Origin: Psilocybe cubensis
Lineage: Eukaryota
Assembly: GCA_017499595.2 (NCBI GenBank)
Contig: CM039006.1
Coordinates: 2,604,001-2,668,000 of the forward strand
DNA length: 64,000 nucleotides
Direction: 5' to 3'
This document shows positions 10,091-37,479 of this stretch, in pieces (position 1 is the first letter of the stretch; every line of letters starts with the position of its first letter). The notes beneath the pieces are model-generated. The model was not told the origin of the DNA. It did not search any database and saw only the letters and a program-made list of their open reading frames with translations. The position numbers were made by a program, and so were the translations under genes.

Positions 10091-12039
10091 ATGGCCACTG
10101 CAAATACCCCAGACTTCGTGCGTATCTGTGTCGACATCTATACACCCCCCTCTCTCAGTGATGCTGATGTGCTGTCCAACAATAGAACAAGGTCCTCTAC
10201 CAGCCTTTGGCGGAGATCGACCCCGAGGTCAAGAACATCATCGACAAGGAGACATGGAGACAGTTTACCGGTCTTGAGCTCATCGCTTCGGAGGTGCGTC
10301 TCTGGTTGTCTTCAATGCGTTTATCACCCTCCTAATCCTGGAATGCTGTAGAACTTGACCAGTCAGGCCACCATGGAGGCCAACGGTTCCATCTTGACCA
10401 ACAAGTACTCGGAGGGTCTCCCAAATGCCCGTTACTATGGTGGTAACGAGTACATCGATGAACTCGAGGTGCTTTGCCGCAAACGTGCTCTCCAGGCTTT
10501 CAACCTCGACCCCGCAAAGTGGGGCGTCAACGTTCAGCCTTACTCGGGTAGCGTACGTAGCTCACTCTCTATAGTGGACTCTTCTACTCACGAACAACAC
10601 CTATCTTGTGATTCATATTCTACAGACTGCCAAGTGGGTATTATTCCTGCGGAACGGATCTCCGTTCTTGAAGCTGACCATCGTTCCTTTTCAGCTTCGC
10701 TGCTCTCACCGCTCTAATTCAACCCAACGACCGCCTCATGGGTCTCGGCCTTCCAGATGGCGGACATCTCACCCACGGATACTATGTACGTGTCCTCCTA
10801 CCCTTCCTTGAGGCCTTTACGAAAGAAAATTAACGATATATCACGTGCATTACTTAGACCGCGAAGAAGAAGATGACCGCTTCGTCCATCTACTTCCAGT
10901 CTCTTCCTTACGCCATCACCCCCCAATCCAACCTTATTGACTATGCTGGACTCGCTGCCCAGGCAAAGATCTTCAAGCCCAGACTTATTATCTGCGGTGC
11001 CTCTGCTTACCCCCGTGACTGGGACTACGCTGAGCTGAAGAAGACGGCAACCAAGGAGGGTGCATGGCTCATGGCTGATATCGCCCACACCAGCGGTCTC
11101 ATTGCTGCTCAGGAGCTCAACAACCCCTTCGAATACTGCGATGTTGTCACTACCACTACGTGCGCTCTTTATTTCCATTTTGCGCATCGAGATATTAATA
11201 GTTCGCGATCAGCCACAAGACTCTTCGCGGTCCCCGTGCCGGTTTGATTTTCTTCAGGAAAGACCTCGAGAATGCTGCTGACCTCGAGAAGCGCGTCAAC
11301 GATGCTGTCTTCCCTGCTTGCCAGGGTGGACCCCACAACAACGTGCGCATAATTTTTTCTTGATTATTTCCTTGTATTGAACATGAGCCTCTCTTATTAA
11401 TAGACCATCGCTGCCATCGCCACCGCTCTCCTCCAAGTCTCGAAGCCCGAGTGGAAACTCTATGCCAAGCAGGTCATCTCCAACGCTCGCACACTCGCCG
11501 CTGCTCTCGTGTCCCACGGCTACAGACTCCAAACTGACGGTACCGACAACCACCTCGTCCTCTGGGATCTTCGCCCCATTGGTCTTACCGGCAGCAAAGT
11601 CGAGAAGGTCTGCGATCTCATGGGCATCACCATCAACAGTACGTCTTTATCGCTCTTTCTCACTTGTAATCAAAAAACAACCTCTTATATTTCCATTTTT
11701 TCAGAGAACGCTGTTTCCGGCGACGCGTCCGCCCAGGTCCCCGGTGGAATCCGTCTCGGCACATCCGCGCTCACCTCGCGCAACATGAAAGAGGAGGACA
11801 TCAAAGTCGTCGCCGAGTTCCTGCACCGCGCTGTGCAGCTCTCGCTCCTGCTCCAGAAGGAGGCCGGCTCGAAGCTGCTCAAGGACTTTGTCCGCGTCGC
11901 GACTGTGCCCCAGGAGGGCCTCGAGGGGTACAAGCAGGTGAAGCAACTCAGGGAGGAGGTCATCGCGTTCGCTAGCAAGTGGCCGCTTCCTGGTGTCGAC
12001 GTCACGACGCTCACTAAGCCCGAGGGCCTGCATGAGTAA
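10091..12039 (+). CDS. SHM2: Serine hydroxymethyltransferase, cytosolic type (multi-exon)
   Basis: Motifs [69 protein letters not shown] (PLP lysine), [24 protein letters not shown]. No mitochondrial leader seen. Confidence 0.96.
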
Positions 12040-13494
12040 AAAAAAACATGCAACAATCGGTGCCTTTATACCCGTTGTCCATTTAGCCCTCGACTTTCCG
12101 GTTCTCTTCTATCCCATCGGTCCTGGTCCAGGTCATGGTTCTGGTTTATTTTTGTTTCCCCCTCAAAAGAAGATTCAACGATCAACTCTTCACTGACTGA
12201 CTTGTAGATTCTATCATTGTCTTTACAATTAGAAGATGCAACACCCCGTTTATAGACGGACTTCAACATTGTCCGGCCCCCCCACCCATTGCTTATATCT
12301 TTCCTCTTTGTATTTCTAGTTGACGCATACCACGAATCTTACTTGACATCTATAAAAAAAAAGCATAATGTATATATTTCATGGCTATGACTCCGTTGTT
12401 ATTGAGTGTGCATGTGGTTCTGAAGGTGAGCGTAGGAATTTCGTATTTGTTTTTGGGCTGTTTTCGCTACTTTCAATGTTCCATGGCAAACCTGTGTGAA
12501 GGAGCTTTTCGAGTTGTTCGACGCGTGAAAGCCGCACAAATGCCAATGGCGCTATATATTGTAATTTATAAATTATAATAGGGCAGGAGCTTATGCATAA
12601 TATGAAGAGGGTCATGTCTCATGATGAGTTAAGAAATCGTACCGATGTGAATGGAATACTATCGCTTTCCCCTTCAATCAGTCGGTAGATTTGGGATACT
12701 GATTGCTGGTTGCTGAGCGCTGAGTACGAGTGTTCATGTTCTTCCTGTGCCGGAGGCACCCCTGACCTGGCCCATGTCATCAGGTGTTTTTCTGCGGAAA
12801 AGCGAGTGGCCCAAATGGAGAAGAACAACGTCCGCGTGCGGAGACACAACCGATGGAACTTTCAAGCCTTTTGTATCGGTGTAGGTTTGAGATAAAGTAA
12901 AACGCCGTATATGTGCCTGTCCGTCTTTCTTTTGGTTCTTCAAGTCATTAACGAGCTCTTTCCGATGAGCGTGGGAAAGAGATGGAAATTCCCGAACGTC
13001 CAGTCTGACTTGAGAAAGATTTTGTCGACTCAGTAGTTTTGGTGAGCTAGAAACTTCATCTCTTGCGCGCTATACGATCTACTTCTCACGTTCAAGCTGT
13101 ATATCATAGTTTCAGTGTTAGAACTTGACTGAAAGAAAGTAAGACCTTCATGCGGAAATCAAGTAGATCTGCCGTTTCCATGTTGCATTTTACCTGACCC
13201 ATGTGGAGGAGTATTCATTCTCCGGGGGGAAAATTGACAAAGAAAAAAGTCAGATAATGGGTGTCATTATGTCCAGAGCTGCTTATTTCTGCTGTGAGGT
13301 TGTCTCGTGTGGAAACTGACACGGGGTTATCCCTTTGTCCTATTGGCACCATTCGCACTTTGAAGTAATTACTAATAAACGGTCACCCTGGCCGTGTAAA
13401 AATAGCACACGCATGTTTCTAATCGCCGTAATATATGATAATATCAGGCCTTACAGTCATTTTTATTGATAATACCGTTGTATTGTAGTGCCAA

Positions 13495-14286
13495 TTGTCA
13501 TCAATAAACGACTGTTACTACTGTCCATTGACAAGCAGCCCATGTCTTTGGCGACTCTGCAGGTCTGCACACAGAAGCAGCGTCGATTGTCAATCAGCTC
13601 CTGATGGACAATTTATTAGCCCTACACAAGGAAGAAGCATTCGTTCAAATTGTCCATCACCTCCTGATGGACAATTTGATAATGACCTCCTTAGGGTACC
13701 TTGTTTGGAAAAAAGGGTGTGGCATTTCCTGGACTTGTCCATCATCGCACAAGTATACGTGGTTTGTATAGGACTTACTATATGCAGTATGATTTCTTGT
13801 TGTCAATCAATTTTCTTCATAACGCCAGGTATTGCCATTGTCAATCATCTTGTGGGTATTAAAATGTTTTTCCATGATTCATTATACGCAACGTTCTGCA
13901 CCTTTGTCGATCAATTCTTGGTGAGGCTCAGTTTGTTTCATTATTCAACGCGCAACATCAATTTGTCAATCACACCAGTGGCGTGTAATGGCCCGTCATC
14001 CCTTTCTTTCTCCTGGCCTATTGTCCATCATTGGTCATATCGGTGCCTAAATTTGTGCCTCGTTTGTCCATATAGGTTGTAGAACTATAGTAATCTTGTA
14101 CATCACCCTACAGCACATTTTTGGCGCATGCCCCCGTCCATTCAATTGTCGATCAGGCTCAGTGCTATATATACCTTTTACCTGTCAATTATTTAGCGCC
14201 ATGCAAAGCTGCAAGCGCTATTGTCAATCACAACGGATTTATGCCACGCGGCCAGCTTGAACGCTACTTGTATCATTTGTCAATCA
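13495..14286 (+). repeat. Left subterminal array of 10-bp motif TTGTC(C/A/G)ATCA
   Basis: Copies at 13587, 13650, 13735, 13800, 13838, 13904, 13963, 14021, 14146, 14221 and 14277, two inverted copies at 13602 and 13665, plus degenerate copies. Confidence 0.9.
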
Positions 14287-14374
14287 CACGCTATTTATAG
14301 AGAGCCCATCCTCGGATACATGACCTGATTTCTATAAAGGCCCACAGTTGAGGTTAAGGGATGCCTTCATCATC

Positions 14375-14728
14375 ATGAATCTTCGTTCAAGCACCAGTAT
14401 GTTTTTTATTTGTTTGCTCTCTCCAAGCGCATCCTAACAAATGCGGTATTGAATCTATAGGGAGGCTGAATGCTACACCAATTGGCCTTTTGATACCGCC
14501 TTTTCCAGATGATGGCGTCCTTTACTTAAGCCACAGGCAAATAGAGTATGTATTTGCTGAATCCTTCCTGACAGTTATCTATCTCTCATATGTACGACTA
14601 GACAAATTGCTTTGATATGTATTCAAGAACAAATCCGGACTGGTCAGCTTAAAATCCACGATAAATTAGATTTGAAAAGCCCAGATGTTGATGAGGGCCC
14701 CCGGCCAGAAGCTGCAAATAGAACGTAG
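14375..14728 (+). CDS. Putative 77-aa three-exon microprotein upstream of the transposase (not in ORF track)
   Basis: ATG at 14375. GTATGT..TAG introns at 14397-14460 and 14546-14601 keep the frame: MNLRSSTRRLNATPIGLLIPPFPDDGVLYLSHRQIEQIALICIQEQIRTGQLKIHDKLDLKSPDVDEGPRPEAANRT*. TATAAA at about 14333. Confidence 0.45.
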
Positions 14729-14923
14729 ATTTGATTAGTAATTGGCAATTGGCCACTACCATAATGGACCAATCAACGTTTTTGAACCCTTCTGAAATGT
14801 CCATCAGCGAGATAAAGCTTTCGTAACCAAGACAATCAACCTACCTTCATTCTATCTAAAGTTCATACCCACATATTTTGTTACTTTCCCTCCCCAGGAT
14901 CCATCCTTCAGAGTTTCGAAGCC

Positions 14924-17900
14924 ATGGGACGACAACGCAAGCAGAAGAATTTTCAAGTCGATGAATACGAATCGCCAGACGAGAAACTTGCCAAAGAGGC
15001 ATTGAAAGGAGACGTACATACAGACTATCTAGGGAAAAAACAGCAAACAGTTCGTCTTTCTCTGCCTGTTGGAGTTGATCCCAAACCTTTCCCTCCATTG
15101 ATGTCCAACGACTCCCCAACACCAACCCTTGATTGGGTGTTGCAAAATGAAACTCCATTTCGTGTGTTTGATGGTGATATTGAAATACAAGAAATGGAGG
15201 ATTGTGAGCTGGAGGCTTTGGGGATAATTAAATACTTTCGACGCACAGAAATCCCGTCCGAGCAATCAGACATAATTGAAAATCCTCAAAAAAAAAGGAA
15301 AACCCATTCGGTGAAGTGGATCTTACTTATTTACATCAGCTTTGTCTCTGATATTCCCCATGATGTGTTCTAACTTCTAGACACATCCGATTCATTTCTG
15401 GACCCCACACATTGACTCCTATGTTGACGAGCTGCTACGATTAGAAGCACCCGCTGGACCCATGGACCAATGCAGCAACACATCATGCACTGCTTTATTA
15501 GATTGTGCTTTATTTCGTTGTAGGGATTGCTGGGGCGGAGCTCTGCTATGTGCGGATTGTATAGTATCATTGCATAAGCAGAATCCGCTCCACAGAATAG
15601 AGGTTTTTCTATCTACAATTCCACAGTTATCTGGTCGCTTACCCATTATTTATCTCAGCATTGGACCGGTACATACTTCAGAAAAATATCTTCAAAATCA
15701 CTGGGTCTCCGCATCCAACTTGGCCATGCCGACGGTATTTGCGAGGTCCCCATCCCTGCGTTCAATGATAGCTTTGTCATAATATCAGTGAATGGGATCC
15801 ACGAAGTGGCTCTGGACTACTGTGGATGTACTATGGCACAATCTAGACCCACTCAACTGCTCCGTTCACGTCTATTCCCCTCTACAGTCAGCGACCCTAA
15901 AACTGCTGCGACCTTTGAAGTTCTCGAATACTTTCAGTTGCTTTCATTCAATACAAAGTCTTCTGGTTTTGAATTTTATCAAACTTTATCAAGGTTGACG
16001 GATAACACGGGAACAAAACCACCTCCAGTAAGAACTTCGTACTAACATTTATTTTCCAATGGCGCTAATGCTTAAGCTTTTGAGGATTGTTATCCTGTCT
16101 TTATGCGCATCGTAAGAGAATGGAGACATGTTAGGTTGCTTAAGCGCATGGGGCGCGGCCATGCAGAATCGGGCGTTGAAGGGACAAAAGAGGGAGAATG
16201 TGCTGTTTTGTGCCCCGCGTGCCCTCATCCGGGTATCAATATTCCGGAAAACTGGCAAGAGCGCCCAGAATCTGAGCAGTGAGAGTTTTATTGCTTTTGT
16301 CTATCACTGTCTTAAATTTACACTCTTATAGATGGATTTATTCACTATTTATTGGAATAGATGCAAATTTTCGACTCAAGAGAATGAATGTATCAAATGA
16401 CGATCGAGATCCCCCTTTAAACCATGGCTATGCTTACATGGTTGAAAGTAGGAAGTTCAGAGAATACTTGGACACTTACGACTCAAAAATTCCCGATGAG
16501 AAAAGTAATTGCAATAATCATGACGCTATCAAATCTGCAAGCATTCGAGGTGGAAAAGGAACAGCCGCCAGTGGGTTAGGCACTATTGAATGCAGTCGAC
16601 ACGATATGAAGCGTCCAGTATCCGTTGGAGACCTTCAAAAGGGCGAAAGGTATGTATTTGATAAACTGTAAAAGTTATCCATCAATCTCTTACCATCTTA
16701 TCAAATTGTCCATCATTCTTGCTCGTAATCACCAATTACGGAACATTGAGATATGTTAATATGGATTACTTTTTTCTGTCAAGCATCGCATTCATACTTC
16801 TCCATCGCTTGGTGGTATCTTATGACATTGCTTGCCAGTGGTGGTGTAATCTGATGAAACGGTGTTTAGTATATCCTCCAAACTCACTTTCAACTTTGAA
16901 TCTAGACATTGTGTACTTGGTACCAAAATTTCACCTTCCAGCGCATATCCCAAAGTGTCAAACCTCTTTCTCATTCAATTTCACTCCTGGAGTTGGGCGC
17001 ACTGATGGCGAGTCTCCTGAACGTGGTTGGTCATCAGCAAATGGAATTGCCAGTAGCACAAAGGAAATGGGGCCAGGATCTCGGAACGATACCCTGGATG
17101 ACCATTTCGGGGATTATAACTGGCGCAAAATCATTGGAATGGGTAGGAAACTTACTATTGCTTTTTGACATATCTCATGCTTCAATTTACAGCCAACACA
17201 TTTGTACGCAAGGCCAAAGAGGCCATTACCGCTCGGGAGGAGCACGTAGAGGCTTTCATTGAATTTGATGCTGCCTTACCGGTAGAAGTCACTACGGAGT
17301 GGACACGGCTATGTCAAGCATGGGAAAAGGATTCTAGCCAAATAAACCCATATGTCATTCCAAAAGGAAAGGGAAAAGGCGGTGAGTAATCGAAAAAGGG
17401 TACTAGAATTCCCTGATATTCAACTCCGATTGATAGCCACTGTAACTGAAAGGGATGTGCGACTAAAGCTTGCCGCTGAGGATGCAGCCTCCCTGGCTAG
17501 GGGAGACGCCATACAAGTGCACGATGATATTAGTCCAAGCCTTCTTATATATCAGGGACTCCAATTTGAGGAACTTCAGTATGTTCTGGTTACCTGTTAC
17601 AAACCTCAGCCACTTACTAATTTATCTACAAGGCACCGTATTACACATGATAGCTCCAAACTCGGACTTCACGCTACCAGTTTACAACAGTCAAGGATAT
17701 TGGAACGGTCCAACTCCCTCCGACGTCGCATAGATGCCTGGATATCCATCCAGCATTTATACATGCCTGTCGTAGCTTCGATCCGCTCGCGTGATGATGC
17801 GGGAGCTACAGAACCAGTTGCTGTGCAGGATATAAAGCTTTTCCTCCCCTCATTCAACACTGTTACTCTCCAATGTTCACACTTGTTGCTAAAATGCGAG

Positions 17901-18682
17901 TGGGAGTATCGAAATGCACAAGCCGAAGAAACTCTAACATCACTCCGGGCACTTCTGTTGCTGCGGTCGCATATGTACAAGTCAAAACACCAACATTCTC
18001 GTGGCCAACGCATGCAAACTCGAAGTCAAAAGCTACTATCAGATGTCCAAGATAAAATTAATTATTTGGTGAAGACATATAGGAGGATACATACAGCATT
18101 AGAAAACCTGTCTCCAAGTCTCATTGAAACCTCGTGGCGCACTGTGTATCGCCCTCTTCTTGACGAAGACGTGGCTGGTCTGACATCATTGGACGATTCT
18201 GGTAGCGAAGGCAGGAAGCAATTGTCATGGATTTGGAAAGTCCAAGGAACTGGCGCTGACGCCGATGCATGCACCCAAGCAGGTAAGCAGACCATCCGCA
18301 AGAGTACTATAACTTAATTTTGCCGTTTCTTATTTCAGCTTTACGTGTAGAGTGGTGTAAGTCGCGTGCGAGGGCTCATCGTTGGCAAGAGGAGTGCATT
18401 TTGCTTGCTGAAGAAATGCGCCGGGTTATAGGCTATTTTGAATGGAAGAAAAATCAGTGGAAAAATTGCGTGGCAGCAGTCCAAGCACAGTACAGTGCCG
18501 ATTCAGAGTCCGTAATACCAATGCAGCAGGAACTTTGCAACGGAAAAGTTGCTTACGCACATCGACAACAAGCAATTTGTGGAGATATCATGCTACGTTG
18601 CCAGAATGAATGGCAGGGTCTTTCACACTTGCTAACACATATGGAAGGGCGGAATGCATGGGTTATGGTAGAATGTCATTAA
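14924..18682 (+). CDS. CxC2 cysteine-cluster + KDZ transposase (multi-exon)
   Basis: FRCRDCWGGALLCADCIVSLHKQNPLHRIE|HWTG, LGLRIQLGH, NGIHEVALDYCGC, CPACPHPGINIP. Catalytic-type motifs GIDANFRLK, CSRHD, DLQKGER|YVNMDY, VSYDIACQW, PKFHLPAH, GRTDGESPERGWS. C-terminal RVEWCKSRARAHRWQEEC..EEMRR. Confidence 0.93.
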
Positions 18683-18836
18683 CGTGTGTAGTCTCTTTTC
18701 AATAATCAAAAATTCTACCATAATTAAGAGTTCAGTTTGCGGGGCTAAAAGCTTTTGATAAATTCTGTCCTTCTTGGTATGTACGATTTTCAAGGCCCAA
18801 GTCAATTTATTTTTCAAGTTAGAGACAGACGACAAG

Positions 18837-19842
18837 TCAAAATATACGTGATATAAAACATTCAAGAATTGACGTGTGGAAAAAACGGAGCAGTTTACAT
18901 TTCAAGACGATATGTTTGAAGATCTGACGGACCATCTTAGAGTGCAGCACTGTCTGTTTCATCAGAAGTGGGGCCAGAAGCAGTGGTATCCGGAATATAC
19001 ATGCTTCGGAGGGGGGATGGACCAAGTTCTCCAGAATGGTGCCTAAAGGCGGCGCACTTGATCGTTGGTTCCTGCGACCTCACAATCTTAGACCTGGGGG
19101 TAAGTAAAGACTAAATCTCAGAAAAGAACAGCTATACCATTCTTTGCTGACATCCTGCAGCAAATTCCGCCAAGAGCTGCGCATCTTTAAGAACGTCTTC
19201 ATCCTCCTGGAGCCGAAAGACCTTCTTGCGTTGGGCCTCAAGGTATCTTTGCGCTTGAATTTGGCGTTCGTTGACTTTCTCCTGATGTTTGGCCTCCTGT
19301 TTCTTACCATGGATTTCTTCTTCATGTCGACGAACTGTCTCGTCGCAAAACTCTTTCCAGTGTAAGGTGGCAGGATGACACCAAACTCCAGCAAAACACA
19401 ATTCAATAAATATTCTCTATTGAGCCTGTTAGAGAAATCATGGACGGATTTGAAAACACGAAGATACGCACCCGACGAGTGATTTGCCTTCGATGAGCAA
19501 CAGCTTCCAGATCATCCTTGTCTGTTGGTATCTCTGGCCATAGGGTGAACCACACAGAGTAGAAACGGTTGAGGAAAGCCTTCCTCTCCCCAATCCTCCA
19601 CGCTTGCATGTAGTAGGGGCCTGCCTCCTCAGTGAGCTTGAATTGTGCGGCTGCAACGGTGCGTGATATCATCTTGCGACGAGGTTGGATAGTGACAGGC
19701 TTTAAAAACACATTAGAAGCGTGTCATTCTTGTCGGTTGAAACTGAGATGCTTACCGGGTAGGGGTGTAACACCTTGGACTGCAGTGAGTTGTCCCTACT
19801 TGTAGTTTTATCCTTCTTGACGTTGCGTGTTTTGGGCATCAT
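18837..19842 (-). CDS. KDZ-element cargo gene A, hypothetical (3' end uncertain)
   Basis: Spliced exons MMPKTRNVKK...HPYP|PVTIQPRRK...KAFLNRFYSVWFTLWPEIP...|RIFIELCFAGVW...coiled-coil-like EEEIHGKKQEAKHQEK. GT-AG introns. Confidence 0.55.
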
Positions 19843-20355
19843 AAAGCAGTTGCGATGGAAGTGAAGAGTGAGGAACACACACTTGACGATTGCGTGGATT
19901 ACCCGCCTATAAACCCGTGTACAAGGTTCGTACTCCTCTTGAAGTCCATTTGATGGACAATTGCCAAAGGAATGACAGGAATTGCCTGTCATGCTTGAAG
20001 AATTGTCCATGGGCGCTTCAGTAATTGATGGACAATTGTTGAAGGTGATGGATAAGTCAAGCGCACATGTACCTCAATGACGTAGTATCGGTTATTGGTA
20101 CACCCGACCCGGTCTATGATTCGTGGGAAGGTTGGCTGAAACATACAATAACATAGAAATGGTGTAGATAATGATACAAGCTATGTATGGATTCTTTAAA
20201 GTCATATTTGGAATCAGAATAATAATCCCTTTCAAACAATACCTCTTTGAGGACAGTTTTCTACAGTTGCTAGTAAAAGTTAGAAGAATCCGTGGTTCAG
20301 TCACAACTTGACTACGTTTCACAAGGCAACGCACACTTTGTCCTGTACCACCACT

Positions 20356-21047
20356 ATGGGTAGACCCAAAAAATACAAAACCGACGAAGAACTAAAAGCT
20401 GCCAATCGTGCCAAAGCAAAACGGCATTATTATAAGTAAGTTTATTCAGCCAGGCAAGTAAACTACAGCGTACTAATTAATATTCAACTGTTTTCCTAAC
20501 AATACAGAGAGCGAGGCAAGATTTTGACGGAAAGACGTGGGACATACAAAGAATGCCACCCAGACCTGTACGTTGGATATTTTCATATAGTGCTATTGAC
20601 ATACTAAAGATATCTATCCTAAGCTCTGAAATTCCGGAAAAAAGAGGGAGTGTCGTAACCCATATAGAATTAGAGAAACCGGAACCCCTTGGAGTGTGGA
20701 TGGATCAATGTTGGAGACTCCAGCGACGATTTTGGCGCTTCATCGGAGAAGATCAGAAGTCATTTCTGGATACCATATGCCAGAAGTTCATAGACACCGA
20801 AGACGATACAGAAATCGAAGAGCATCTCGCCACATTACACAACTTTGAGACATCCATTCAGCGTTATAAGGGAAAGATTCTACAGATTTCAGGCGTAGAA
20901 AAGCCTCTCCTCCAGGTTCAAGAGATAGAAAGGCAGATTCATACATTGATAACTTACTTACAAGACATACTATGCCTTACTCTCTTCGACCACTCTAGCT
21001 TCCAAAAAGCCTTTACTTTTCGCCAGTTTGACTATCAAAAGGTGTAA
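20356..21047 (+). CDS. KDZ-element cargo gene B, small basic protein with N-terminal AT-hook-like GRPKK
   Basis: MGRPKKYKTDEELKAANRAKAKRHYYK|ERGKILTERRG..|SEIPEKRG...WMDQCWRLQRRFWRF...FDYQKV*, with two introns. Confidence 0.7.
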
Positions 21048-21222
21048 ATAGGACTCTTATATCATATCACACATTTTCACTTTGGATGCAAACATGATAT
21101 TTTTTAAGCACGGTATATACACATAAATGGAGGCAGTCCCAGCACAACAAGCAAACAGATAGGTACGACACGATAATAGCAGGTGGGACAGCAAGGTGAT
21201 AACAAACGGGAGCAAAAGATGA

Positions 21223-22797
21223 CTAGACCCCTTTGACTTCAACGTTTCCCGCATCAAGAGCCTCTTGGAAGGCGGCATAAGCAGCTGCCTCATTACTGTA
21301 CCTCCTGTAGACGGATCCCCTGACTCCAGTGACAAGGGGGGAGACATTGTGCCTATAACTGTTTCAGAACAAAAAAGAGAAAAATCTCATTGAAATTACG
21401 TACCAGCCAGTAAACACACCAACTCGCTTTCCCTTAGTCACAACATAGTAAGGCTCCGGAGTATGGAAATGAATCTGCATTTGGCAATTAGGACAAAATC
21501 CTGTGTGAGCGGCTGCAACGGGGGCGGCTGCAACAGGAGCAGTTGCGACGGGGGCGGCTGCGATGTGGTTGGCTGTGACGGGGGCTGCGGCTGCGACGTG
21601 AGCAGTTGCAATAGGAGCAACTGCGATGGGGGCTGCGACGTGGGCGGCTGCAACAGGAGCAGTTGCAACGGGGGCGGCTGCGACGTGGGTGGCTGCAACA
21701 GGAGCAGTTGCAACGGGGGCGGCTGCGATGTGGTTGGCTGCGACGGGGGCTGCGGCTGCAACGTGAGCAGTTGCAATAGGAGCAACTGCGATGGGGGCTG
21801 CGACGTGGGCGGCTGCAACAGGAGCAGCTGCGACGGGGGCGGCTGCGATGTGGTTGGCTGTGACGTGGGCTGCGGCTGCGACGTGAGCGGTTGCAACAGG
21901 AGCAACAGGAGCAACTGCAATGGGGGCTGCGACGTGGATGGCTGCAACAGGCGCAGCTGCAACGGGGGCAAATGCAACAGGAGAGGCTGCAACAACGGCC
22001 TCTGCAACGTGGTTGGCAGCTACGCCAGATAACGCCATATCATCAGGTATATCAGAAACGTAGGAAATGTTGTCTTCATCGTCGCTGTCCTCAACAAAGA
22101 TACAAGCATTATCACTGGTGAGAGGATCTTCCTCACCATGTGATGCATGGGTTGCAGCTTGGGCGGGAATCAATACCAGAAAGCGTATATTAAGGTGCAT
22201 GTTACGGGACTTACCTGTTGGAACACCAACCTGCTCCATGAATAGTGCATCAATTACCGCATTACGCTCGGCGGCACGGTTGTCAGAGAGACCTAGAAGA
22301 TAAATCAGTCAGAGGGAAGCAGCTCCAGTCGGTGCTTGAACTGACGGATAGCTTCGGTTGGTCCTGCATCTGATCGAGTATATATCAGTTAGAAACGGAA
22401 GTGTATTGGTTAATATTAATACATACAATTATCTGGGACGGTGTGAATATCTATAATGGGGAAGAGAAAACTTATTCAATGGAATAGGCGCGCCCCCATG
22501 AAGAAGACTTACCAATGGATGTTGCGTTGTTGGGACAAACATTTGAATTGAACCCAATGATGCCAAAACGACGAAGGCAGAAGACAATGGCCACAATGAG
22601 ATTGCCCATTGGGATGTCTTCCACACCGTTGTGACTGACTATCGTATCAGTTAGTAACGCTGAATCAGTGGTTTGACAGGATGATTACCGGGAAGCTCCA
22701 ATGCTTCAAGAGCGGCACTAATAGTGTCTACATTCAATTCCATTGCATCTGTATTGTCGGCGTTGTTCTGGATGCTTGTGAGCAAGGGAGGTGTCAT
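21223..22797 (-). CDS. KDZ-element cargo gene C: Ala-rich repeat protein with C-terminal RNase H1 N-terminal (hybrid-binding / caulimovirus viroplasmin-like) domain
   Basis: Multi-exon, starting MTPPLLTSIQNN. An Ala/Pro/Val/His repeat is followed by CPNC and PYYVVTKGKRVGVFTGW|HNVSPLVTGVRGSVYRRYSNEAAAYAAFQEA, which matches the YxVxxGxxxGVYxxWxxxxxxVxG...xxFxxxxxAxxF pattern. Confidence 0.78.
21505..22025 (-). repeat. Coding minisatellite (~15-bp units with higher-order repeats) encoding APVAA/AHVAA/NHIAA
   Basis: Repeated ggctgcaacaggagc / ggctgcgacgtg / gcagttgc units. The block AAAHVAAPIAVAPIATAHVAAAAPV.ANHIAAAPVA recurs. Confidence 0.9.
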
Positions 22798-23152
22798 TTT
22801 TGGAGCTCAGTGAGTGGGATATTTGGAAGGTTGAGTTGGGGGATATATGGGAAGATTGCCCTTATTTGAATCGATGGACAACTATACAGTAGCTCGGTAA
22901 ACGGCGGAGAAGCCGAATTGGTAAGCCAAGCCACAGATCGGATGTAGATTATGGAAGCTACGAGCGGCAGTGCTGGGGAAAGGGCCGCTGAAGGAGGGAG
23001 CACCCATTCAGCCCAGAGGAGTACTCGATATACATTGTAGGCGCCTCAAAAAATATATTTGGTATATGTTGCTGATATATTCTTAGATCACTTATTCTTG
23101 GAACATATCACCGGCACTTTTAATATCTGTGACATTGTTTTTCCGTGCCAAG

Positions 23153-26100
23153 ATGCCGCCAACGCCGTGGGCCACGCCCGACCAAATCGAGTTCATGTCT
23201 ACTTGGTTACCACAGTTCCAGGATGCTCAGCGTAATAAAAATATAGCCGATTTCTGGGTGAAGTTATATGCCAAATTCTTCTTAAGGTGGAAAGGGCCTG
23301 AAGATGAAGTTCAACCCGATTTGGTTCAGCTAAAGAAACGTAAAAAAGACAACAGAAAGTTACCTCAAACATCGACGCCTATTGAGTTAGATCATGCTGC
23401 ATGGATTAAGCTACGGAAGACGGTGAGATCCATAGCTTTTTTTTCTGATTTGATTCAATCAATGTCTAACGAATACCCTTTTTGTCCAATTCCATGTCTA
23501 ACGAATTCCATTTTTGACCGATTCCATGTCTGACGAATTCCATTTTTGACGAATTCCATGTCTAACCAATTCCATGTCTAACCGATTCTAGCAAATCGCT
23601 AACTGGTTTAATAACCGGGGCAAAGGAAGCGAGAACCGACGCCAAGGCCCCGCCATAGTGATTGGATCTGCAGGGCCCAGTCAACGCGCCCTCTCTGAAC
23701 TGAATGTCTACTCGAAGCGGTACTACAATGAAAAAATATGTTCTCTCGTGGAAAAAGAACTCGAAAAACAAGGCGGCCCCGCCCACATTGCTCTTATCAA
23801 TAAATGTATCAGTGAGGCATGGGCCATGGAGTCCGAAGATGTCAAAGAGGAGATTCGCGCAGAGACAAAGAGGTTGAAAGAGTTACTGAAGGAAGATCGC
23901 TCTGGGAATAGCGAGCAACCGACTCCTCAGGAATACGCCAAGTACGTTTGTTTTGGCTGCGTTGATTCAATTATTATTGATGAATTACTAACCAATTACA
24001 TGATTTAGAGCGATTATGGAAGCTCCTGGTCAAATTACAAACTTTCTTCAAGAAATGTACAAACGCACTGGCTGGTGCTTGAGTCTCCTAGCTGGCGGCC
24101 CTGATCCCTCGCGTCAAGGAAAGATTCGTACAATCAGCATCCATATGGGAAAGGACAAATTCGACCAGTTTTACTCGTGTGCCTATCCAGACTTTCAGGA
24201 AAATGTTTTGGGTTCGTACCGCAGCTACTTATACAATGTATATTGTGAGTATGGTTTCTATTAAATGAATATACAGAGACTCACAAAGTGTTATATATAT
24301 AGCTCAGAAGGATAGAGATAATCGCGCCCTCTCTGAAACGGAGCCTATAGCGAGTATGAAAACAGATAAAGGTGGGATCATGGACGACTGCGAAGACAAT
24401 TCCGGTCCTACCGTTCAAATCGAGGTTGAAAAACCAACACTGGTAGGAAATGAAGACGGCCCCAATTTGATGGATCCTGACGGCCGGAATGATATACCAG
24501 CTGCGGCGACCGAGGATACACCAGCTGTAGCGACCGAGGATACACCAGCTGCAGCGACCGAGGATACACCAGCTGCAGCGACCGAGGCAACCGTTACCTC
24601 CACAATCAGGACCACGGAGCCATGTAATGGTGTTACGCAGACTCCTGCAACTCCTGCAATAGAAATACTGGGTCATGGCCTTGCTATTGATGGAAACAAT
24701 ACCAACGCTCAACAATGTTCCGACAGTGGCCCAGATGATAGCCGCCCAGTGTCTTTGGTAGATCCCCCAAATGGAAAAGCGATGGACGGAGACAAATTGT
24801 ATGCAGAAGAAGACAAGGTGCTTTCGTTCATGGAATTGTTGAACGTGGATGGGGGTTACGACCCAGAAAGAGACCCATTGCTTCAAATTTCTATGAACAA
24901 TGTGTTTTTTTCAAACCATCAGTTTGTGGGCAGTACACAGGAGAACAGAGCATTTCAAGTACCTATAACAGCAACGCCAATGGCCTGGGTTCCGCGTCCC
25001 AAAGATAACACTTCCTTTAATGTACAAGCACCTGTAAATTTGTTTCCACCCATCCCAACGTCGACAAACAATCCAAATGGTCACAGTCTGCCTTTTTATC
25101 ACCAAGAGGGCCTCATTACTCCTGTGTATGCTCCGACGGCTGGATCTTACCTTTCAGCCCAGCCGGCAGTGATGACAGAGCAACCGATTGCTCCAGGTCT
25201 TTTCCCAACACTGCAGTCGGCATTCACACCTCCCTGCGCACCGTATTTTGTTCAACCAGAAATGATGCCAACAATATCCAATCAAAATTGGGCTCATTCA
25301 AACACTTTGTCGGCAGTAACACCACCTGTGCCTGAGCAACTGGGGTCCTCGACACTGATGGACCATTGTGAACCCCAAAATCTGCCATCGTTGAGATTTT
25401 CTGATGCCCTGTCGACGGGCATGCCAAATACTGGGTATACCAACCCTGATATATTCCCCCAGTTTGTCCAAGCGACTCCTAGTCTGTATGGGTCTGGCCA
25501 CCACAACGTCACAATACCCCAGATAGTTCAAGCACATGTAGGTGTCAGTGCCTCTGGCGTTGCACAGGAATCGAGAACGTCATCACCCACTAGCCAGCTA
25601 GATCTCAGGGCCTCAATGCACTCCCCGCAATCACGCCCATCTGCTTCTGAGAAACAAGAAAGAATTCCGGTAACAGGGGGGCATCCAACACCTCGGGACA
25701 CAGTATCCGACAATACCAACTGTACAACAGCAACAGGGACAATGATAGTCCCCACCCCAGCCCTTGAATCTGTTGCTCATGCTTCGCAAACCCCTGTCTT
25801 GAACGAAATGAATGCTGAAATGCAGCACGTCGTCGGGGATGGTGGCCGTCGAGCTCGCAAGGCCGCAAGTTCAAGGAATGTCCCTATGCAGCAAATGTGG
25901 AGAACAGCAGCATTTGAGCACCTTATGATGCCTGAGATAGATACGGAGAAATGGAAATCATGTGTAAAGGCATGGGTTGCATTTGAGGATTCGCAATGCA
26001 ATGCCATCGAAACCAGTTCGGTAAGTAATTTTAGAACAGTAACAGAATATCAACGCTTACAATAATACCAGCTCCGATTCCCAGCTGCGATGAGGCCAGC

Positions 26101-26497
26101 GGTCCTGACCAAATGGTTATCGACTCGTAAGTACGGGAATGTCCCTGATATTGGAGCCAAATTTGGGGATGAGTGGGTAATGTGGTGGAATAACAGTCAG
26201 CCTAAATGGAGGCAGAGCTCGGAGGCTGGTAAGCTTCCACGATGTCTGTCTATTGCAGGAGGGAAAGACAGCATCAACATGTTGAAGAAAGGAGGTCCAA
26301 ATGGATTGGTAACGGTGATGATTGGGTTGAGGTGGTGGGCAAAACAGCGACACTCCGACCCTAGATGGGAAGAAGCCGTTGAAGACATCCTTGCTGTATT
26401 CCAAGCATTCCAAGGAGGCGGTAAAGTGACTAAAAAGCGTAAGGGGGACGAGGAAAACATCGAGGCAAAGCCGAAAGTGAAAAGGAGGAAGACATGA
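23153..26497 (+). CDS. KDZ-element cargo gene D: large protein with HMG-box-like segment, long low-complexity middle, Trp-rich C-terminal domain and terminal NLS
   Basis: MPPTPWATPDQIEFMSTWLPQF..FWVKLYAKFFLRW; ELNVYSKRYY...INKCISEAWAMESEDVKEEIRAE (HMG-like); TGWCLSLLAGGPDP; WVMWWNNSQPKWR...KGGPNGLVTVMIGLRWW; KPKVKRRKT*. Confidence 0.8.
23461..23589 (+). repeat. Tandem ~15/30-bp repeat in intron 1 of cargo gene D
   Basis: Alternating ATTCCATGTCTAACGA and ATTCCATTTTTGACCG-like units directly before the 3' splice site. Confidence 0.85.
24496..24588 (+). repeat. 24-bp coding tandem repeat x4 (PAAATEDT)
   Basis: ccagctgc(g/a)gcgaccgaggataca units. Confidence 0.9.
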
Positions 26498-26632
26498 TTA
26501 TGATGTTGCTCTTTCTCTTTGTCAGTTCCCACGCGACCCATCTAATGTTTTTTTGCGCGGTTCTTTTGAACAAAAGCTAAGTTTAATATACTCTCTTGGA
26601 ATAAAATGCAATTTAAAACTGATACCCATGGG

Positions 26633-27354
26633 AGATGGACAATCCGGTTGTGATCAATAAAGTTCAGTGGGTGAATATCTGTTCAGGTCCTGGCAAATGA
26701 GCGGTTTGATTGACAAAGAATGGAGTGGATCGATGAAAGGAATTGGTAATCTGCTGAATTTATGCGGCAAATGGACAAATGAAGAGGGAGTGCCGCTAGG
26801 TATTGGAGAGCGCCATAAGGTGTCCCTCTAGGTCTTTTGTTGATGGATAAATCTCCTTGCAAAAGGGTGAGCGGGATAGATGGACAATTGGCGCACATTT
26901 TGAAATATCTGACGAACTGACCAGTACGCCCTCCCAATGATGGACAAAGGGTATGGCAGATGATATTACCAACGTTCAGCAGACATTGACAAAGTGGATG
27001 CGGATGAATGAAAATAGATCGACAACCGCACTATGTATGGATGAGCCACCATAGGCCATAAATGATGGACAACGTCATGATATTGCACATGGGGCATTTA
27101 TACATGAATGCACTGTAGAGGATTGGTAAATATAGCGGACATGATGGACGAGTTAACAGGTAGATGGATCATGTAACTATGGACAACGTACTGGAAATGG
27201 ATAATCCAAGAGGTATGGTCCGATGGACAAAAAGGATATTTATTGATTGAGAAGTACCACCTATAGACAGAGCGGCTACCATCGACAAAAGCTATGAGTA
27301 TCAAAAATGTGGCTGGAGCAGGCATGGTATAGTATGGTCGGTGGACATCGACAA
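26633..27354 (-). repeat. Right subterminal array of motif (T)GAT(G/T/C)GACAA, the inverse of the left array
   Basis: Copies at about 26633, 26707, 26769, 26841, 26878, 26938, 27015, 27063, 27142, 27177, 27221, 27279 and 27345. Confidence 0.88.
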
Positions 27355-28174
27355 TCTCATTGCGTATAAACAATTCCAAAGGCATTGGTAGGTATGCGAA
27401 TTATGAATGAAGATTGTTACTGTACTGCAATGGTTTATACATTATCACGGTTGTATCTGGTGATAATATACATACGATTGCATTCTACAAGGCAATGTAA
27501 GCGATTGAACTAATAAACTGAGTTTTACTAACTTGTTTCTTCTTGAAGTAACGAAGCTTTCAGATAACAACTGTAGATGATCTGGGTATTTTCATGGGTG
27601 TCGTGGCTCGCTGGGTTACTTTAGGCATTCAAACTTCAAACCGCTTTACCGTGATTTATCGATATAAATAGGTTTCACTGACTTGGAAAAACCAGATGAA
27701 TACCAACTATCCATGTCAAGATACCTAGAACACCAAACCATGAACATCTGAACCATGGATAGTATACTTGGGATTTCAGTCGAGATTTGTAATTATTGGA
27801 AAAGAAAACCTCCTTTCAATGGCAGTAGGGGAGCATTTACACTTACAGCTGGTATTATTCGCATTTGAGACTCAATGGATTGTGAGTACCTGCATCTCTA
27901 AATCGACGCGAGTTCAGAGATATAATATGGAGTGGTCATAAGGAGGCCCAATCCTCTGAAACTAGATAACCAGTTCACCGGATACTTAGTTATTTTTGGA
28001 TTTTTCTCTAGATGGTGTAATTATATCCTTCTCCCTCCTGGTTACGAGCTTATACATACATTGTGAGCTCCTAGAAATCGTATAAAACCTATAGAAAAGA
28101 GGATGAGTGATACTAAGATCCTTCAAGTGGTTCTACTCAGCTCAGTACTCCTAGTCCTCTGCAAACATTAGCGC

Positions 28175-28757
28175 ATGATGTTTTCAAAGTTCAACCTGAT
28201 CAAGGCCATTGCCATGACCATTGCTTTGGCTGTCGGCACTCAGGCTGCCCCCAGCAATGCTTCGCCTGCTTTGGTCAGTAGTATCTCTACAGTCTCTGAC
28301 ACTCTGTGCTTTATAGAACAATTTTAACACATTTCTATACAGGTCGCACGCGACACAGAGGCAGCGTCGGTAGACGGGCACCTTTTCGTCTGCGTCAATG
28401 CCCAATTTGTCCCGCCATGCAACAACTTCAATTTCAATGACGGACAATGCATCAACTTTGTTGCGCCTTTCCAGGACAGCATCTCGAGCTTGGGACCTGA
28501 CCCGGGGTTCACCTGCATTGTCTTCAAGTCAGTGTTGATCCAATTATTCGCCATTTAATTATTGACCATGTTTCAAGGGACTCCAACTGCTCTGGAGAGA
28601 GCCTCGACGTCTCCAACCCCGGTATTTCCGACCTTTCTCAGGGCACCGACCTCAACGACCAAATCTCCTCTTTCCAATGCTTCGCAAACTGGTTAGTTGC
28701 TCATTTCTGTTATTTGTGCCATTTTAATTGGATAATAACTTTGGGTTGACATACAGA
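28175..28757 (+). CDS. Small secreted Cys-containing protein, beta/gamma-crystallin-like, copy 1
   Basis: MMFSKFNLIKAIAMTIALAVGTQAAPSNASPAL|VARDTEAASVDGHLFVCVNAQFVPPCNNFNFNDGQCINFVAPFQDSISSLGPDPGFTCIVFK|DSNCSGESLDVSNPGISDLSQGTDLNDQISSFQCFAN*. It has a signal peptide and two (N/Q)DxISS crystallin-type motifs. Confidence 0.75.
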
Positions 28758-30034
28758 TTTTGCTCTGAAGGATTTAAGGATTACAATGTGCTGTTTGAGT
28801 GAGGGATTGAGGCCTCCCTTATAATATAGCCTCAAACATTTGTCGAAATAAGAAATACATATGTTGTAAATTGTCTGATCTGTCGGTTCAGTGATGCCAG
28901 ATATATCACTTGTGTCATCATAAGTGCATTTTTATGAGACGACTCTCCTATGACTGAGTAAATGGATTAAATTTACGGTTAGATGGTTCCTGGTATATGA
29001 CAGGAATCAATACAGGAGAAGTCGGAGGCCAATGTCGAAGCAAATACGCCTTTAAAGATTACTCTCACTCTCCCTCTCCTACAATCTAACATAGCATTTA
29101 ATAATACACGACCATAACTCTTCTGTTTAGGTGCAAGAGAACCATGGAACCTGGACCTTCCTGAAATTTAAATCAGGAAAAATTAAATTTACCGCCTTTT
29201 ATTTCAATCCATCCCAACCGGTCAATTCTTTTCATACAAAATGCTAACTCACTGGCATAACAAAGGCGACAAACTTTCCTTGCTAGCTTAATCTCTATTT
29301 TGTGACCGACGTCGGGCGATTTGTCAGTGGGAACCTCATGCACAAAAGTGCGACGGAGTTTTTCACTTGATATCATTGGCACCATCCGCACTCAAAATAG
29401 AATCAAAGAAACCAATTGGTCAGTAAAAAATAGCACACGCATGTTTCTAACTCCCGCATCTCTGCCAAAAATGCAGTTACATGGTATTGTATCGAGTCCT
29501 ACTGGCCACATTTTCTTGATATTAAAATGCTGTTATTTAGAAAGCTGCTGTACTATTGGCTATGGTTATGATCTGTTGAAAACGAAACTCGCCTGATCAT
29601 GAGTATCTAACTTAGAAAAATAAAAATCTTAATGAGCCTGGTGGTACTACCACAATTTTTGTGGATTTACAGAGCACAATACTGTTCCGAATGGTCAGGA
29701 GAGGTAGCATTTAACTCGCCACTGGTTATACCCGTACTCTGACTCGATGCTTTGCAAACAACTTCATCTGTAAAGTCGGAGTTAACCCATGAATACCGAG
29801 TCATAGGTCGGTACAGCGTACTGAAACGAGATGAAGAGTATCCCAGATATCGGACCATGCTCGTATCTTTTTGTTAATGATGTATTTCCATTGTCCTTAT
29901 TCCACATTCCGGTCCAAGTTTGAAGAGAAGTGTGGCCGTTAAGAAATCGTATAAGAGGTACAGGTCAGACAAAGGGTAATACTCAGATCCTTCCTGCGGT
30001 TCTACTCAGTCAACCTTTTACACATTAACGCACA

Positions 30035-30511
30035 ATGTTCTCCAAGTTCAATCTCATCAAGGCCATTGCCATGATCACCGTTTTGGCTGTTGGCGCTAGC
30101 GCTGCCCCCAGCGTCGCTGTATCTGATCTGGTTAGTGTTCATTCGATATTCCTTTTTTTATACATGATTTAATACATGCAACACAGACTGTACGTGAAAC
30201 AGAGGCAGCGTCAGTAGATGGGCACCTCTTTGTCTGCGTCAATGCAAATTTCGTCGCACCCTGCAACAATTTCAACTTCAATGACGGCCAGTGCATCAAC
30301 TTTGTTGCGCCTTTCCAGGACAGCATCTCAAGCTTGGGGCCTGATCCAGGCTTTACTTGCATCGTATTCAAGTCAGTATTAGACCAATACTAGCCACTTT
30401 ATTGTCTGACTCTGTTAAAAGGGACTCCAACTGCTTTCCAGTGCTTTGCAAACTAGTCAGTTTTTATTTTCTGTCGGTCATCATAATGGATGATAACGGG
30501 CAACATACAGG
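30035..30511 (+). pseudogene. Copy 2 of the crystallin-like secreted protein with an 80-nt frameshifting deletion in exon 3
   Basis: Exon 2 is nearly identical to copy 1. Exon 3 reads AACTGC|TTTCCAG and lacks the equivalent of 28591-28670. Confidence 0.7.
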
Positions 30512-36710: not shown

Positions 36711-36880
36711 CCGTTGTGTAGGAGAAGAAGAGGGGAGAACAGGGGGATTCGGAACAGAGAAAAGTTCTCAAATTCGACTTATCCCTTTTGAATGTGGTTC
36801 TAGTTCGTAAGATGAGAATCGGGGCACGCGCAAGGCAGACAAACTAAAAATAGCGCTCGGCAACAGGTTGCCTGAATGTA

Positions 36881-37300
36881 ATCTGATAAGGAATGGAGGA
36901 TCGTGTGACTAGAAAGATCATCAATAGGCTAAATCCCATGCAGCAAGGACGTCAGAGGATAGAACCGGAGCATGTACCTTTCAGGTTAACTTTTCCATCG
37001 TTAGCCACACGCCGAAGCGAATGATTTCCGCTGGAAAGAATGGTTAACACCAGATTGTTGGATGCATAAGAGACTCAACCCTCCTCTGCGTTTCATTCAA
37101 AATGGATCGCTTATGTCCAATAATTCCGTGGAGCAATTTATCAAATCTTCTGGAACGAAATATGACAGGCTATGGGATAACAAGGTAAATGTTGGGTGAG
37201 AGACACAGGCGGATATTATGGCGGCCATCTTATCAGATGACTAGATCTTATCAGATTGGACCCTACACGCTGCAGCAACGAGGGTCTTCCGTTATCAGAT
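36881..37300. promoter_or_regulatory. Iron-responsive GATA boxes (ATCWGATAA; SreA/Urbs1/Cir1-type) in the bidirectional FET3-FTR1 promoter
   Basis: ATCTGATAA at 36881; TTATCAGAT at 37230, 37248 and 37292. Confidence 0.85.
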
Positions 37301-37479
37301 TACCCATGAGCTTATGAGAATTTAACTGAAAACAGTTTAAGCCCCGCATTGCTCCTCGGGTAGAAGTTCCTGACTTACATTTCTACTCCGAATAGGACTT
37401 CCAAATTTCTCATTTATGGCACTAAGTATGGCTTAAACGTCCTTCCGAACCCACCTCCCAGTTCCTGCACAAGGTTGAG

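Follow-up and report, generated by a model that had tools for sequence, protein, structure and literature searches.

A 64,000-nucleotide stretch of Psilocybe cubensis DNA (assembly GCA_017499595.2, contig CM039006.1, positions 2,604,001 to 2,668,000 of the forward strand), hereafter called the window, carries a recently mobile 14,018-base-pair (bp) transposon of the Kyakuja type, in which multiple oriented copies of a short word are confined to the two subterminal regions. Related elements have the same architecture, built with words that are particular to each lineage. We consider it likely that these arrays are the cis-acting regions by which the ends of this cut-and-paste element are recognized. 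The original prediction had noticed mirror-image clusters of the word TTGTC(C/A/G)ATCA here and had proposed that they are transposase-binding sites, which mark the ends in place of long terminal inverted repeats (TIRs). The observation of motif arrays is confirmed by the analysis presented below, and their interpretation as subterminal end-recognition sites is supported. From this architecture we further infer that a protein binds the word, that this binding is needed for transposition, and which proteins are the best candidates.

A mobile element bounded by oriented word arrays

The ends of the element can be defined to the base by comparison with public sequencing runs. Nine runs matched the left flank of the insertion in our search, and four of the 12 listed runs were aligned to positions 11500-29500 of the window, three of them holders of the left flank and one a raw-read run chosen by its species label (together X5, X7, X9 and X11). 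All four exhibit an empty site, at which the joint leads directly from position 13435 to position 27461 and skips 14,025 bp (14,018 plus 7), with nine ambiguous bases. In run X7, depth is zero in every bin between 13904 and 27125, and this run therefore lacks the element. The other three runs carry the element at normal depth at a different locus, where their contigs or reads depart from the window sequence immediately ahead of 13445 and immediately past 27462. The foreign flanks of this second locus are common to the three runs (...CAGTGAGGAA on the left and TGAGGAACC... on the right), as is its 7-bp duplication, TGAGGAA. Taken together, the empty-site joint and the identical foreign-flank borders establish that the element comprises positions 13445-27462. 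The predicted subterminal position of the arrays is thereby verified. In the window, ATAATAT is the only 7-bp direct repeat that flanks CA..TG ends among the 45 pairs of 7-bp repeats found.

Sequence divergence indicates that this movement is recent. Over the listed pieces, 12 of 13,603 positions in X5 and 34 of 13,642 positions in X9 (0.09-0.25%) distinguish the element from the window copy, whereas the flanks of the element differ by 1.1-3.6% between the runs and the window. These values suggest that the element moved after the alleles had diverged. The flanks of the insertion site are themselves repeated approximately 2 kilobases (kb) downstream, as a 25-nucleotide exact match (13398-13422 versus 29426-29450) and a 520-bp match at 74.6% identity (28073-28591 versus 29942-30435), so the transposon inserted into one of the copies of a local repeat that predates it.

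The word that defines the arrays is strongly concentrated at these ends. When counted on both strands, the exact 10-mer TTGTCNATCA occurs 21 times in the window, compared to 0.84 occurrences expected from 100 dinucleotide shuffles (standard deviation 0.79, maximum 3), which is an enrichment of approximately 25-fold. Twenty of these copies fall inside the 14-kb element, and 16 of the 21 are within the terminal 900 bp of either end. Specifically, 13 are located on the left (13587-14286; 11 on the plus strand and two on the minus strand), and three are located on the right (26707-27072, all on the minus strand). The 12,218-bp interior contains four copies, at 16297 and 16706 on the plus strand and at 19951 and 20026 on the minus strand, which may be autoregulatory sites or remnants. 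One interior copy sits in an 18-nucleotide stretch that is perfectly complementary to positions 13665-13682. The 49,982 bp of the window outside the element, which served as the background for motif density, hold a single copy (63064, minus strand). These counts correspond to 8.89, 0.33 and 0.02 copies per kb at the ends, in the interior and outside the element, respectively, such that the ends are approximately 400-fold denser than the rest of the window. The motif is thus mostly absent elsewhere in the window, as had been claimed, and is not equally dense in the window DNA outside the element.

For array counts, we defined a core site as the 7-nucleotide sequence TGTCNAT. The left array has 17 such sites at 13522-14284, of which 14 are on the plus strand and point inward and three are on the minus strand and point outward. 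The right array has 13 sites at 26635-27353, and all of these are on the minus strand and point inward. Distances to the nearer end of the element are 78-834 bp for the left sites and 110-822 bp for the right sites, and each array thus fills roughly the outer 830 bp. The mirror-image orientation that had been described is therefore accurate, with all but three core sites facing the interior. The expectation of about a dozen copies per end was likewise correct for the plus strand of the left array. On the right it holds for shorter forms of the word, with seven copies of TTGTCNATC and 12 copies of TTGTCNAT, every one on the minus strand, beside the 13 core sites, and it fails for the full 10-mer. 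Beyond the core, a preceding T and a following CA are favored. The copy at 13495 is missing the central N and is therefore a degenerate one.

Site spacing is uneven (36-85 bp in the left array and 18-114 bp in the right one), and no phasing with the 10.5-bp helical repeat was found (mean resultant length of 0.12 on the left and 0.31 on the right). A tandem repeat or satellite was rejected as the origin of the window arrays, given that Tandem Repeats Finder detects none in either array even at a score of 30. Irregular spacing in unrelated flanking sequence had been predicted, and this description proves accurate. Two inverted, tail-to-tail site pairs with 5-bp spacers are present in the left array and none are present at the right end, and so the two ends of the element are not equivalent. 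The left array is also overlapped by a 197-codon stop-free frame (13489-14079, plus strand), a length reached by none of 500 mononucleotide shuffles. We rejected a coding repeat because the array sites occupy all three frames of this stretch; its translation is rich in Cys and looks non-coding. The motif itself is free of stops in every forward frame, and the left-array strand is pyrimidine-rich.

Arrays, gene order and array words in related loci

Relatives of the element are numerous. A 323-amino-acid exon of the transposase gene (17346-18314) has 1,754 relatives at an E value of 0.001 or lower among 1.84 billion representatives. An alignment of eight full-length relatives led to 196 confirmed loci in metagenome contigs, and the best 80 were retained as the comparison set. 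These loci were scanned for arrays de novo by counting gapped 8-mers per 900-bp window, for which Markov shuffles reach a maximum of five copies, and many of them proved to contain dense clusters. A complete 3´ end of the KDZ gene, followed by no less than 1,200 bp of sequence, is included in 23 loci. Arrays of at least seven copies within 3 kb of that end are present in 16 of these 23 loci, and 12 have at least ten copies. None of 23 gene-body controls contains an array, with a maximum of four copies. The predicted link between arrays and KDZ loci is consequently upheld in this set of related loci.

Mirrored arrays were sought in the 20 loci that are at least 10 kb in length, with a null score of 3 or lower; the window scores 12/12 in this test. 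Four loci have strong mirrored arrays that flank the entire gene set (L016, 33/24; L040, 17/15; L044, 19/18; L073, 23/18), and two have weak ones (L068, 17/5, which is cut by the contig end, and L053, 8/5). Relatives have up to 40 copies per end, and their site spacing is partly periodic, with intervals of approximately 19 and 36-38 bp in L016, 30 and 34 bp in L044, and 14, 28 and 37 bp in L073.

The metagenomic relatives (L013, L016, L002, L040, L073, L044 and others) thus resemble the window element in that they carry accessory genes B to F together with the KDZ gene, homologous tips and mirrored arrays. In contrast, they use other words in more copies, have imperfect TIRs, and direct the KDZ gene toward the near end, whereas in the window this gene is directed away from the near end. 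Genes B, C, D and E/F are all conserved, in collinear order, in L016, L028, L040, L068, L073 and others. From the far end to the near end, relatives carry F, E, D, C, B and KDZ, with the outermost genes directed outward, and therefore both arrays lie beyond gene 3´ ends. Compared to L013, L016, L040, L068 and L073, only the transposase gene of the window is inverted, and the element is otherwise collinear with them. No inverted repeats border the inverted segment at the expected positions. The window array retains its inward polarity despite this inversion. Judging from these layouts, the arrays follow the ends of the element rather than its genes.

The tips of the elements are homologous as well. 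Six relatives (L040, L005, L001, L068, L004 and L073) have the near-KDZ tip GAGGCCAATACGTCGTTTTGAT, which begins with GAGGCC, where the window has CAGGCCTTACAGTCATTTTTATTGAT; the window element begins with CAGG and ends with GGTG. At the far end, L040, L073 and L024 have CACC(A/T)GAGTATGGCAGA where the window has CACCAGATACAACCGTGAT. The exact ends of relatives are approximate, since they were placed where homology between loci begins. Inside these tips, imperfect TIRs are evident in L040 (134 bp, 89.6% identity), L073 (113-147 bp, approximately 80%) and L016 (50 bp, 80%).

The identity of the array word changes in an orderly manner along the transposase tree. On a tree with 47 rows, word classes require ten changes, compared to a mean of 18.1 for shuffled classes, and a value this low is reached in none of 200 shuffles. 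The window element is sister to L013 (65% identity, support 99), and its clade also includes L016 and L002 (support 96). Throughout this clade the word reads inward, and it forms a stepwise series from the window word TTGTCCAT through TTATCCAT to TTATACAT. Clades outside that of the window use ATTTGTAAATG, TTATnGATGGG, ATGCAT-type words or GGGAACaACAAA. The ATTTGTAAATG-class word (L040, L068, L005) resembles TTGTCNAT of the window, and in that sense it points outward rather than inward; it is nearly palindromic, which makes the strand that corresponds to that of the window ambiguous.

One additional observation concerns genomic location. The metagenome contig L035, which contains a fragment of a KDZ gene, ends in telomere-type TTAGGG repeats (17145-17231), and this KDZ copy is therefore subtelomeric.

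Element class and the probable role of the arrays

According to the available text of one published account, Kyakuja elements are 9-31 kb in length, carry several genes including a KDZ transposase with an N-terminal Cys cluster, generate 7-bp duplications, and have 5´-CA..TG-3´ ends without TIRs (PMC12730594). The window element shares the KDZ domain and an N-terminal CxC-type Cys cluster, has a 7-bp duplication at two independent sites, and has CA..TG ends, no TIR (none was detected between its two terminal 160 bp by blastn with word size 7 and an E value of 1e-3) and several genes; its relatives do have the imperfect TIRs noted above. Furthermore, its left tip CAGGCCTTACAGTCAT resembles by eye the Kyakuja consensus 5´ tips GAGCCCATTCAGTCAT, CACACCTTTCAGTCAT and CAGGGCAGTTAGT in Table S1 of the same source (PMC12730594). 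Short words such as CCCATCGGCCCA, GGGCCCA and GTCCCAAG can also be seen by eye to recur in the first 400 nucleotides of the Kyakuja and Zisupton consensuses given there. We therefore assign the window element to the Kyakuja type on the basis of its ends, duplication, domains and by-eye tip likeness, all of which agree with that type. It differs in having no TET/JBP gene, as no Pfam match to this family exists among the 105 element open reading frames (ORFs) of at least 55 amino acids.

Other KDZ elements fit less well. The available text reports 8-bp duplications for Zisupton and Dileera (PMC12730594), and the accessible descriptions of Cryptococcus KDZ1, KDZ2 and KDZ3 report TIRs of 139-241 bp and duplications of 4-8 bp, which mostly are 8 bp (PMC11343200; bioRxiv 10.1101/2025.05.19.654958). 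The window element, with no long TIRs and a duplication of 7 rather than 8 bp, is unlike all of these. The Cryptococcus elements resemble it as large (9-11 kb) mobile elements of a basidiomycete that encode a CxC-type Cys cluster and a KDZ domain, as far as these descriptions extend. Theirs, however, is a CxC1 domain, and arrays are unmentioned in the accessible descriptions (PMC11343200; bioRxiv 10.1101/2025.05.19.654958). The text of PMC12730594 available to us likewise makes no mention of subterminal repeats or binding sites, and no description of subterminal arrays in KDZ elements emerged from literature searches that covered work other than the two founding papers (Iyer et al. 2014; Bohne et al. 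2012).

The arrangement in the window is reminiscent of better-known transposons from other superfamilies. Elements of the En/Spm group have a word of 10-12 bp that recurs many times, in either orientation, over a few hundred subterminal bp at each end, where it is bound by TNPA, and these sites include tail-to-tail pairs; the elements generate 3-bp duplications and end in a 13-bp CACTA TIR. The window element is similar in its repeated word of approximately 10 bp at both ends, its tail-to-tail pairs and its multi-gene composition, but its arrays are longer (approximately 830 bp with 13-17 sites, and up to 40 in relatives). It is also distinguished from CACTA/En-Spm (CMC) elements by the tips CAGGC and CACCA, by its 7-bp duplication, and by KDZ being its only transposase family. 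Ac/Ds and other hAT elements have short words scattered irregularly over approximately 250 bp per end, which are bound by an N-terminal zinc domain of the transposase, and their ends are asymmetric; they generate 8-bp duplications and have short TIRs and a hAT dimerization domain. The window element shares the irregular short words at both ends and the non-equivalence of those ends, but it has neither the 8-bp duplication nor short TIRs, and no hAT dimerization or BED domain was found.

We propose that an element-encoded protein would bind repeatedly to the 13-17 copies of TTGTC(C/A/G)ATCA per end. The transposase itself is the first candidate and might bind through its N-terminal Cys-rich/CxC2 region, and the second is a conserved accessory protein that would act in the manner of TNPA of En/Spm. 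Such multiple binding would mark both ends and bring them together, and the catalytic domain would then be placed on the short conserved tips (CAGGCC... and ...CTGGTG). Binding to the arrays would in this manner substitute for the long TIR that is missing from the window copy.

Several results weigh against this interpretation. Seven of the 23 loci examined beside the KDZ gene have no array there (L021, L034, L038, L049, L076, L077 and L079), and 14 of the 20 long loci have no mirrored pair, with scores of 3 or lower as in shuffles. Some of these loci may be relics, or their arrays may reach past the contig. The earlier claim that the ends are marked by arrays in place of long TIRs agrees with the window copy. 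In relatives, imperfect TIRs accompany the arrays, and so the arrays need not suffice for end recognition. A perfect 7-bp or 8-bp duplication flanking CA..TG was not found in L016, L040 or L073. Moreover, the full 10-mer is matched only three times in the right array, and the predicted CxC2 domain resembles no solved DNA-binding fold in the searches described below. Finally, the clustering of words on the tree fits co-evolution of the word and its binder without proving it, because shared ancestry alone would also cluster the words.

Among other functions that might be assigned to the arrays, one is transcriptional or chromatin control, whereby they would be promoter, enhancer, insulator or silencing-nucleation regions that are not needed for cutting and joining. 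The subterminal sites of En/Spm double as promoter control regions, the left array of the window is located 637 bp upstream of the transposase start codon, and the four interior copies lie near gene boundaries. However, in relatives the arrays on either side of the element lie past the 3´ end of the outermost gene, which argues against a promoter role, and the right array of the window also follows a gene 3´ end. In addition, the mirrored orientation is preserved in the window although the transposase gene is inverted. We consequently regard an exclusively regulatory function as unlikely.

The arrays might instead be bound by a host protein, such as a chromatin or repair factor, that assists or targets transposition or tethers the element. 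This idea gains some appeal from the fact that fold searches gave the CxC2 region no DNA-binding assignment and that the accessory proteins have no recognizable domain. The word nonetheless differs sharply between close element lineages, as would be anticipated for a binder that the element itself encodes and that diverges with it, and this difference is difficult to square with a host factor that is conserved; a host binder therefore seems to us very unlikely. We also considered whether the arrays could be functionless by-products, namely decayed local duplications of terminal sequence that persist neutrally. The partly periodic spacing in L016, L044 and L073 does indicate that arrays grow by local duplication. 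In the window, however, the sequence between sites is unrelated and Tandem Repeats Finder reports no repeat, and the T, C and A positions next to the core are conserved (the TGTC.AT core itself is invariant by the manner in which sites were selected). Arrays also recur at both ends, in mirrored form, in at least five word classes, and the active copy retains them, all of which makes neutral persistence highly improbable. End recognition by an element-encoded protein thus remains our preferred explanation for the arrays.

A more general proposal can be offered tentatively, and we judge it slightly more doubtful than probable. Dense arrays with 13-40 copies of a private 8-12-bp word, extending over 0.8-1.3 kb per end, could be an undescribed general hallmark of Kyakuja elements, and perhaps of KDZ elements as a whole, that serves as their primary means of end recognition. 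If this is true, the arrays would allow TIRs to decay or vanish, and the word would evolve with the binding protein of the element, such that sister lineages become mutually blind 'incompatibility groups'. The stepwise series of words in the window clade would then represent a snapshot of a specificity shift within one clade. This natural series is useful for studying the evolution of transposase-DNA specificity. KDZ elements are large and abundant transposons that carry cargo in mushrooms, rusts and Cryptococcus, and for these the arrays offer a practical way to delimit elements and, in fungal genomes, to find their non-autonomous derivatives. The reported absence of TIRs from Kyakuja elements (PMC12730594) raises the question of how their ends are recognized, and oriented arrays represent a concrete and testable answer.

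Genes of the element and neighboring features

The window has a single KDZ gene. Its KDZ domain matches PF18758 in two parts (E values of 1.6e-19 over profile positions 1-100 and 2.3e-39 over positions 98-217). Stop codons in the exon map occur only where alignments cross introns, with none inside any mapped exon, and the gene therefore looks intact by this mapping. Given its recent move within the species, its stop-free mapped exons and its base-exact ends, the element is a good starting point for a transposition assay. The 844-amino-acid database protein P0001 does not include the Cys-rich exon and ends before the last exon (18338-18679), and thus its gene model is probably incomplete.

The predicted structure of the CxC2 exon has a predicted local distance difference test (pLDDT) score of 82 and a predicted template modeling (pTM) score of 0.75. 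This fold has no Foldseek match (best E value 0.69) and no match among 48,161 chains (best Z score 2.6), and a profile search of PDB sequences also returned nothing (best E value 0.32). A full-length model of the relative P0010 (pLDDT 71) gave only coiled-coil noise in Foldseek, with a best E value of 0.05.

The accessory proteins have no domain recognizable by Pfam. Gene B has translated matches (tblastx) in L001, L002, L013, L016, L018, L028, L040, L067, L068 and L073, and the conservation and collinearity of gene E/F described above for L016, L028, L040, L068 and L073 extend to L051. The protein encoded by gene E/F is identical, over the tested part, to a hypothetical protein of Psilocybe cubensis, and it has a paralogue at 85% identity. 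It matches no family, its 598-amino-acid ORF has no relative in PDB, and its Atlas matches are only to unnamed Basidiomycota clusters. A tandem repeat with 7.6 copies of a 16-bp unit (ATGTCTAACGAATTCC) lies between the two N-terminal reading frames of this gene (23462-23588) and is probably intronic.

Table 1. Features of the Psilocybe cubensis element, with positions in the window, and array words of related loci
Feature	Position	Strand	Description
Complete Kyakuja-type KDZ DNA transposon, 14,018 bp	13445-27462	+	5´-CAGGCC...CTGGTG-3´, no TIR
Left target-site duplication copy, 7 bp	13438-13444		ATAATAT
Right target-site duplication copy, 7 bp	27463-27469		ATAATAT
Left terminus	13445-13473	+	CAGGCCTTACAGTCAT...; TGATAAT at 13467-13473; homologous to near-KDZ tip of relatives
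Right terminus	27441-27462	-	Inward reading CACCAGATACAACCGTGATAAT; homologous to far-end tip of relatives
Left subterminal array	13522-14287	+	14 inward and 3 outward core sites; consensus aTTGTC(A/C/G)ATCA
Tail-to-tail inverted site pair, 5-bp spacer	13587-13611		TTGTCAATCA GCTCC TGATGGACAA
Second tail-to-tail inverted pair, 5-bp spacer	13650-13674		TTGTCCATCA CCTCC TGATGGACAA; 63 bp further in
Right subterminal array	26635-27354	-	13 core sites, all inward; consensus tTTGTC(C/A/G)ATc
KDZ transposase gene	14924-18682	+	Approximately 8 exons, mapped against relative P0010
Cys-rich exon of transposase	15384-15599	+	RCxDC...C..C...H; aligns to relatives such as P0010
CxC2 domain, PF18803	15695-16012	+	E value 4.4e-41, full profile 2-107
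KDZ domain, PF18758	16339-17120	+	Two adjacent exons at 16276-17165
Accessory gene B	19083-20073	-	No Pfam family; conserved in relatives
Accessory gene C	20299-21056	+	No Pfam family; conserved in relatives
Accessory gene D	21289-22308	-	Ala/Pro/Val-rich tandem-repeat core at 21509-21994
Accessory gene E/F	23087-26497	+	988-amino-acid protein; conserved C-terminal domain at 26066-26494
Array word, L013			TTATCCATcc (TTATCCAT); 7 of 31 sites read TTGTCCAT
Array word, L002 and L016			TTATACAT
Array word, L001, L005, L018, L040, L067 and L068			cATTTGTAAATGgg
Array word, L024 and L073			TTATnGATGgg
Array word, L009, L044, L051, L053 and L070			ATGCAT-based
Array word, L004			GGGAACaACAAA

Two features of the window lie outside the element. 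An apparently intact polyprotein gene of a copia-type long terminal repeat (LTR) retrotransposon is present on the minus strand at 3119-7567, with a 1,483-codon frame that includes gag, integrase and RVT_2 domains. At 35630-38888, two adjacent host genes encode a multicopper oxidase and an FTR1 iron permease, the usual pair for high-affinity iron uptake.

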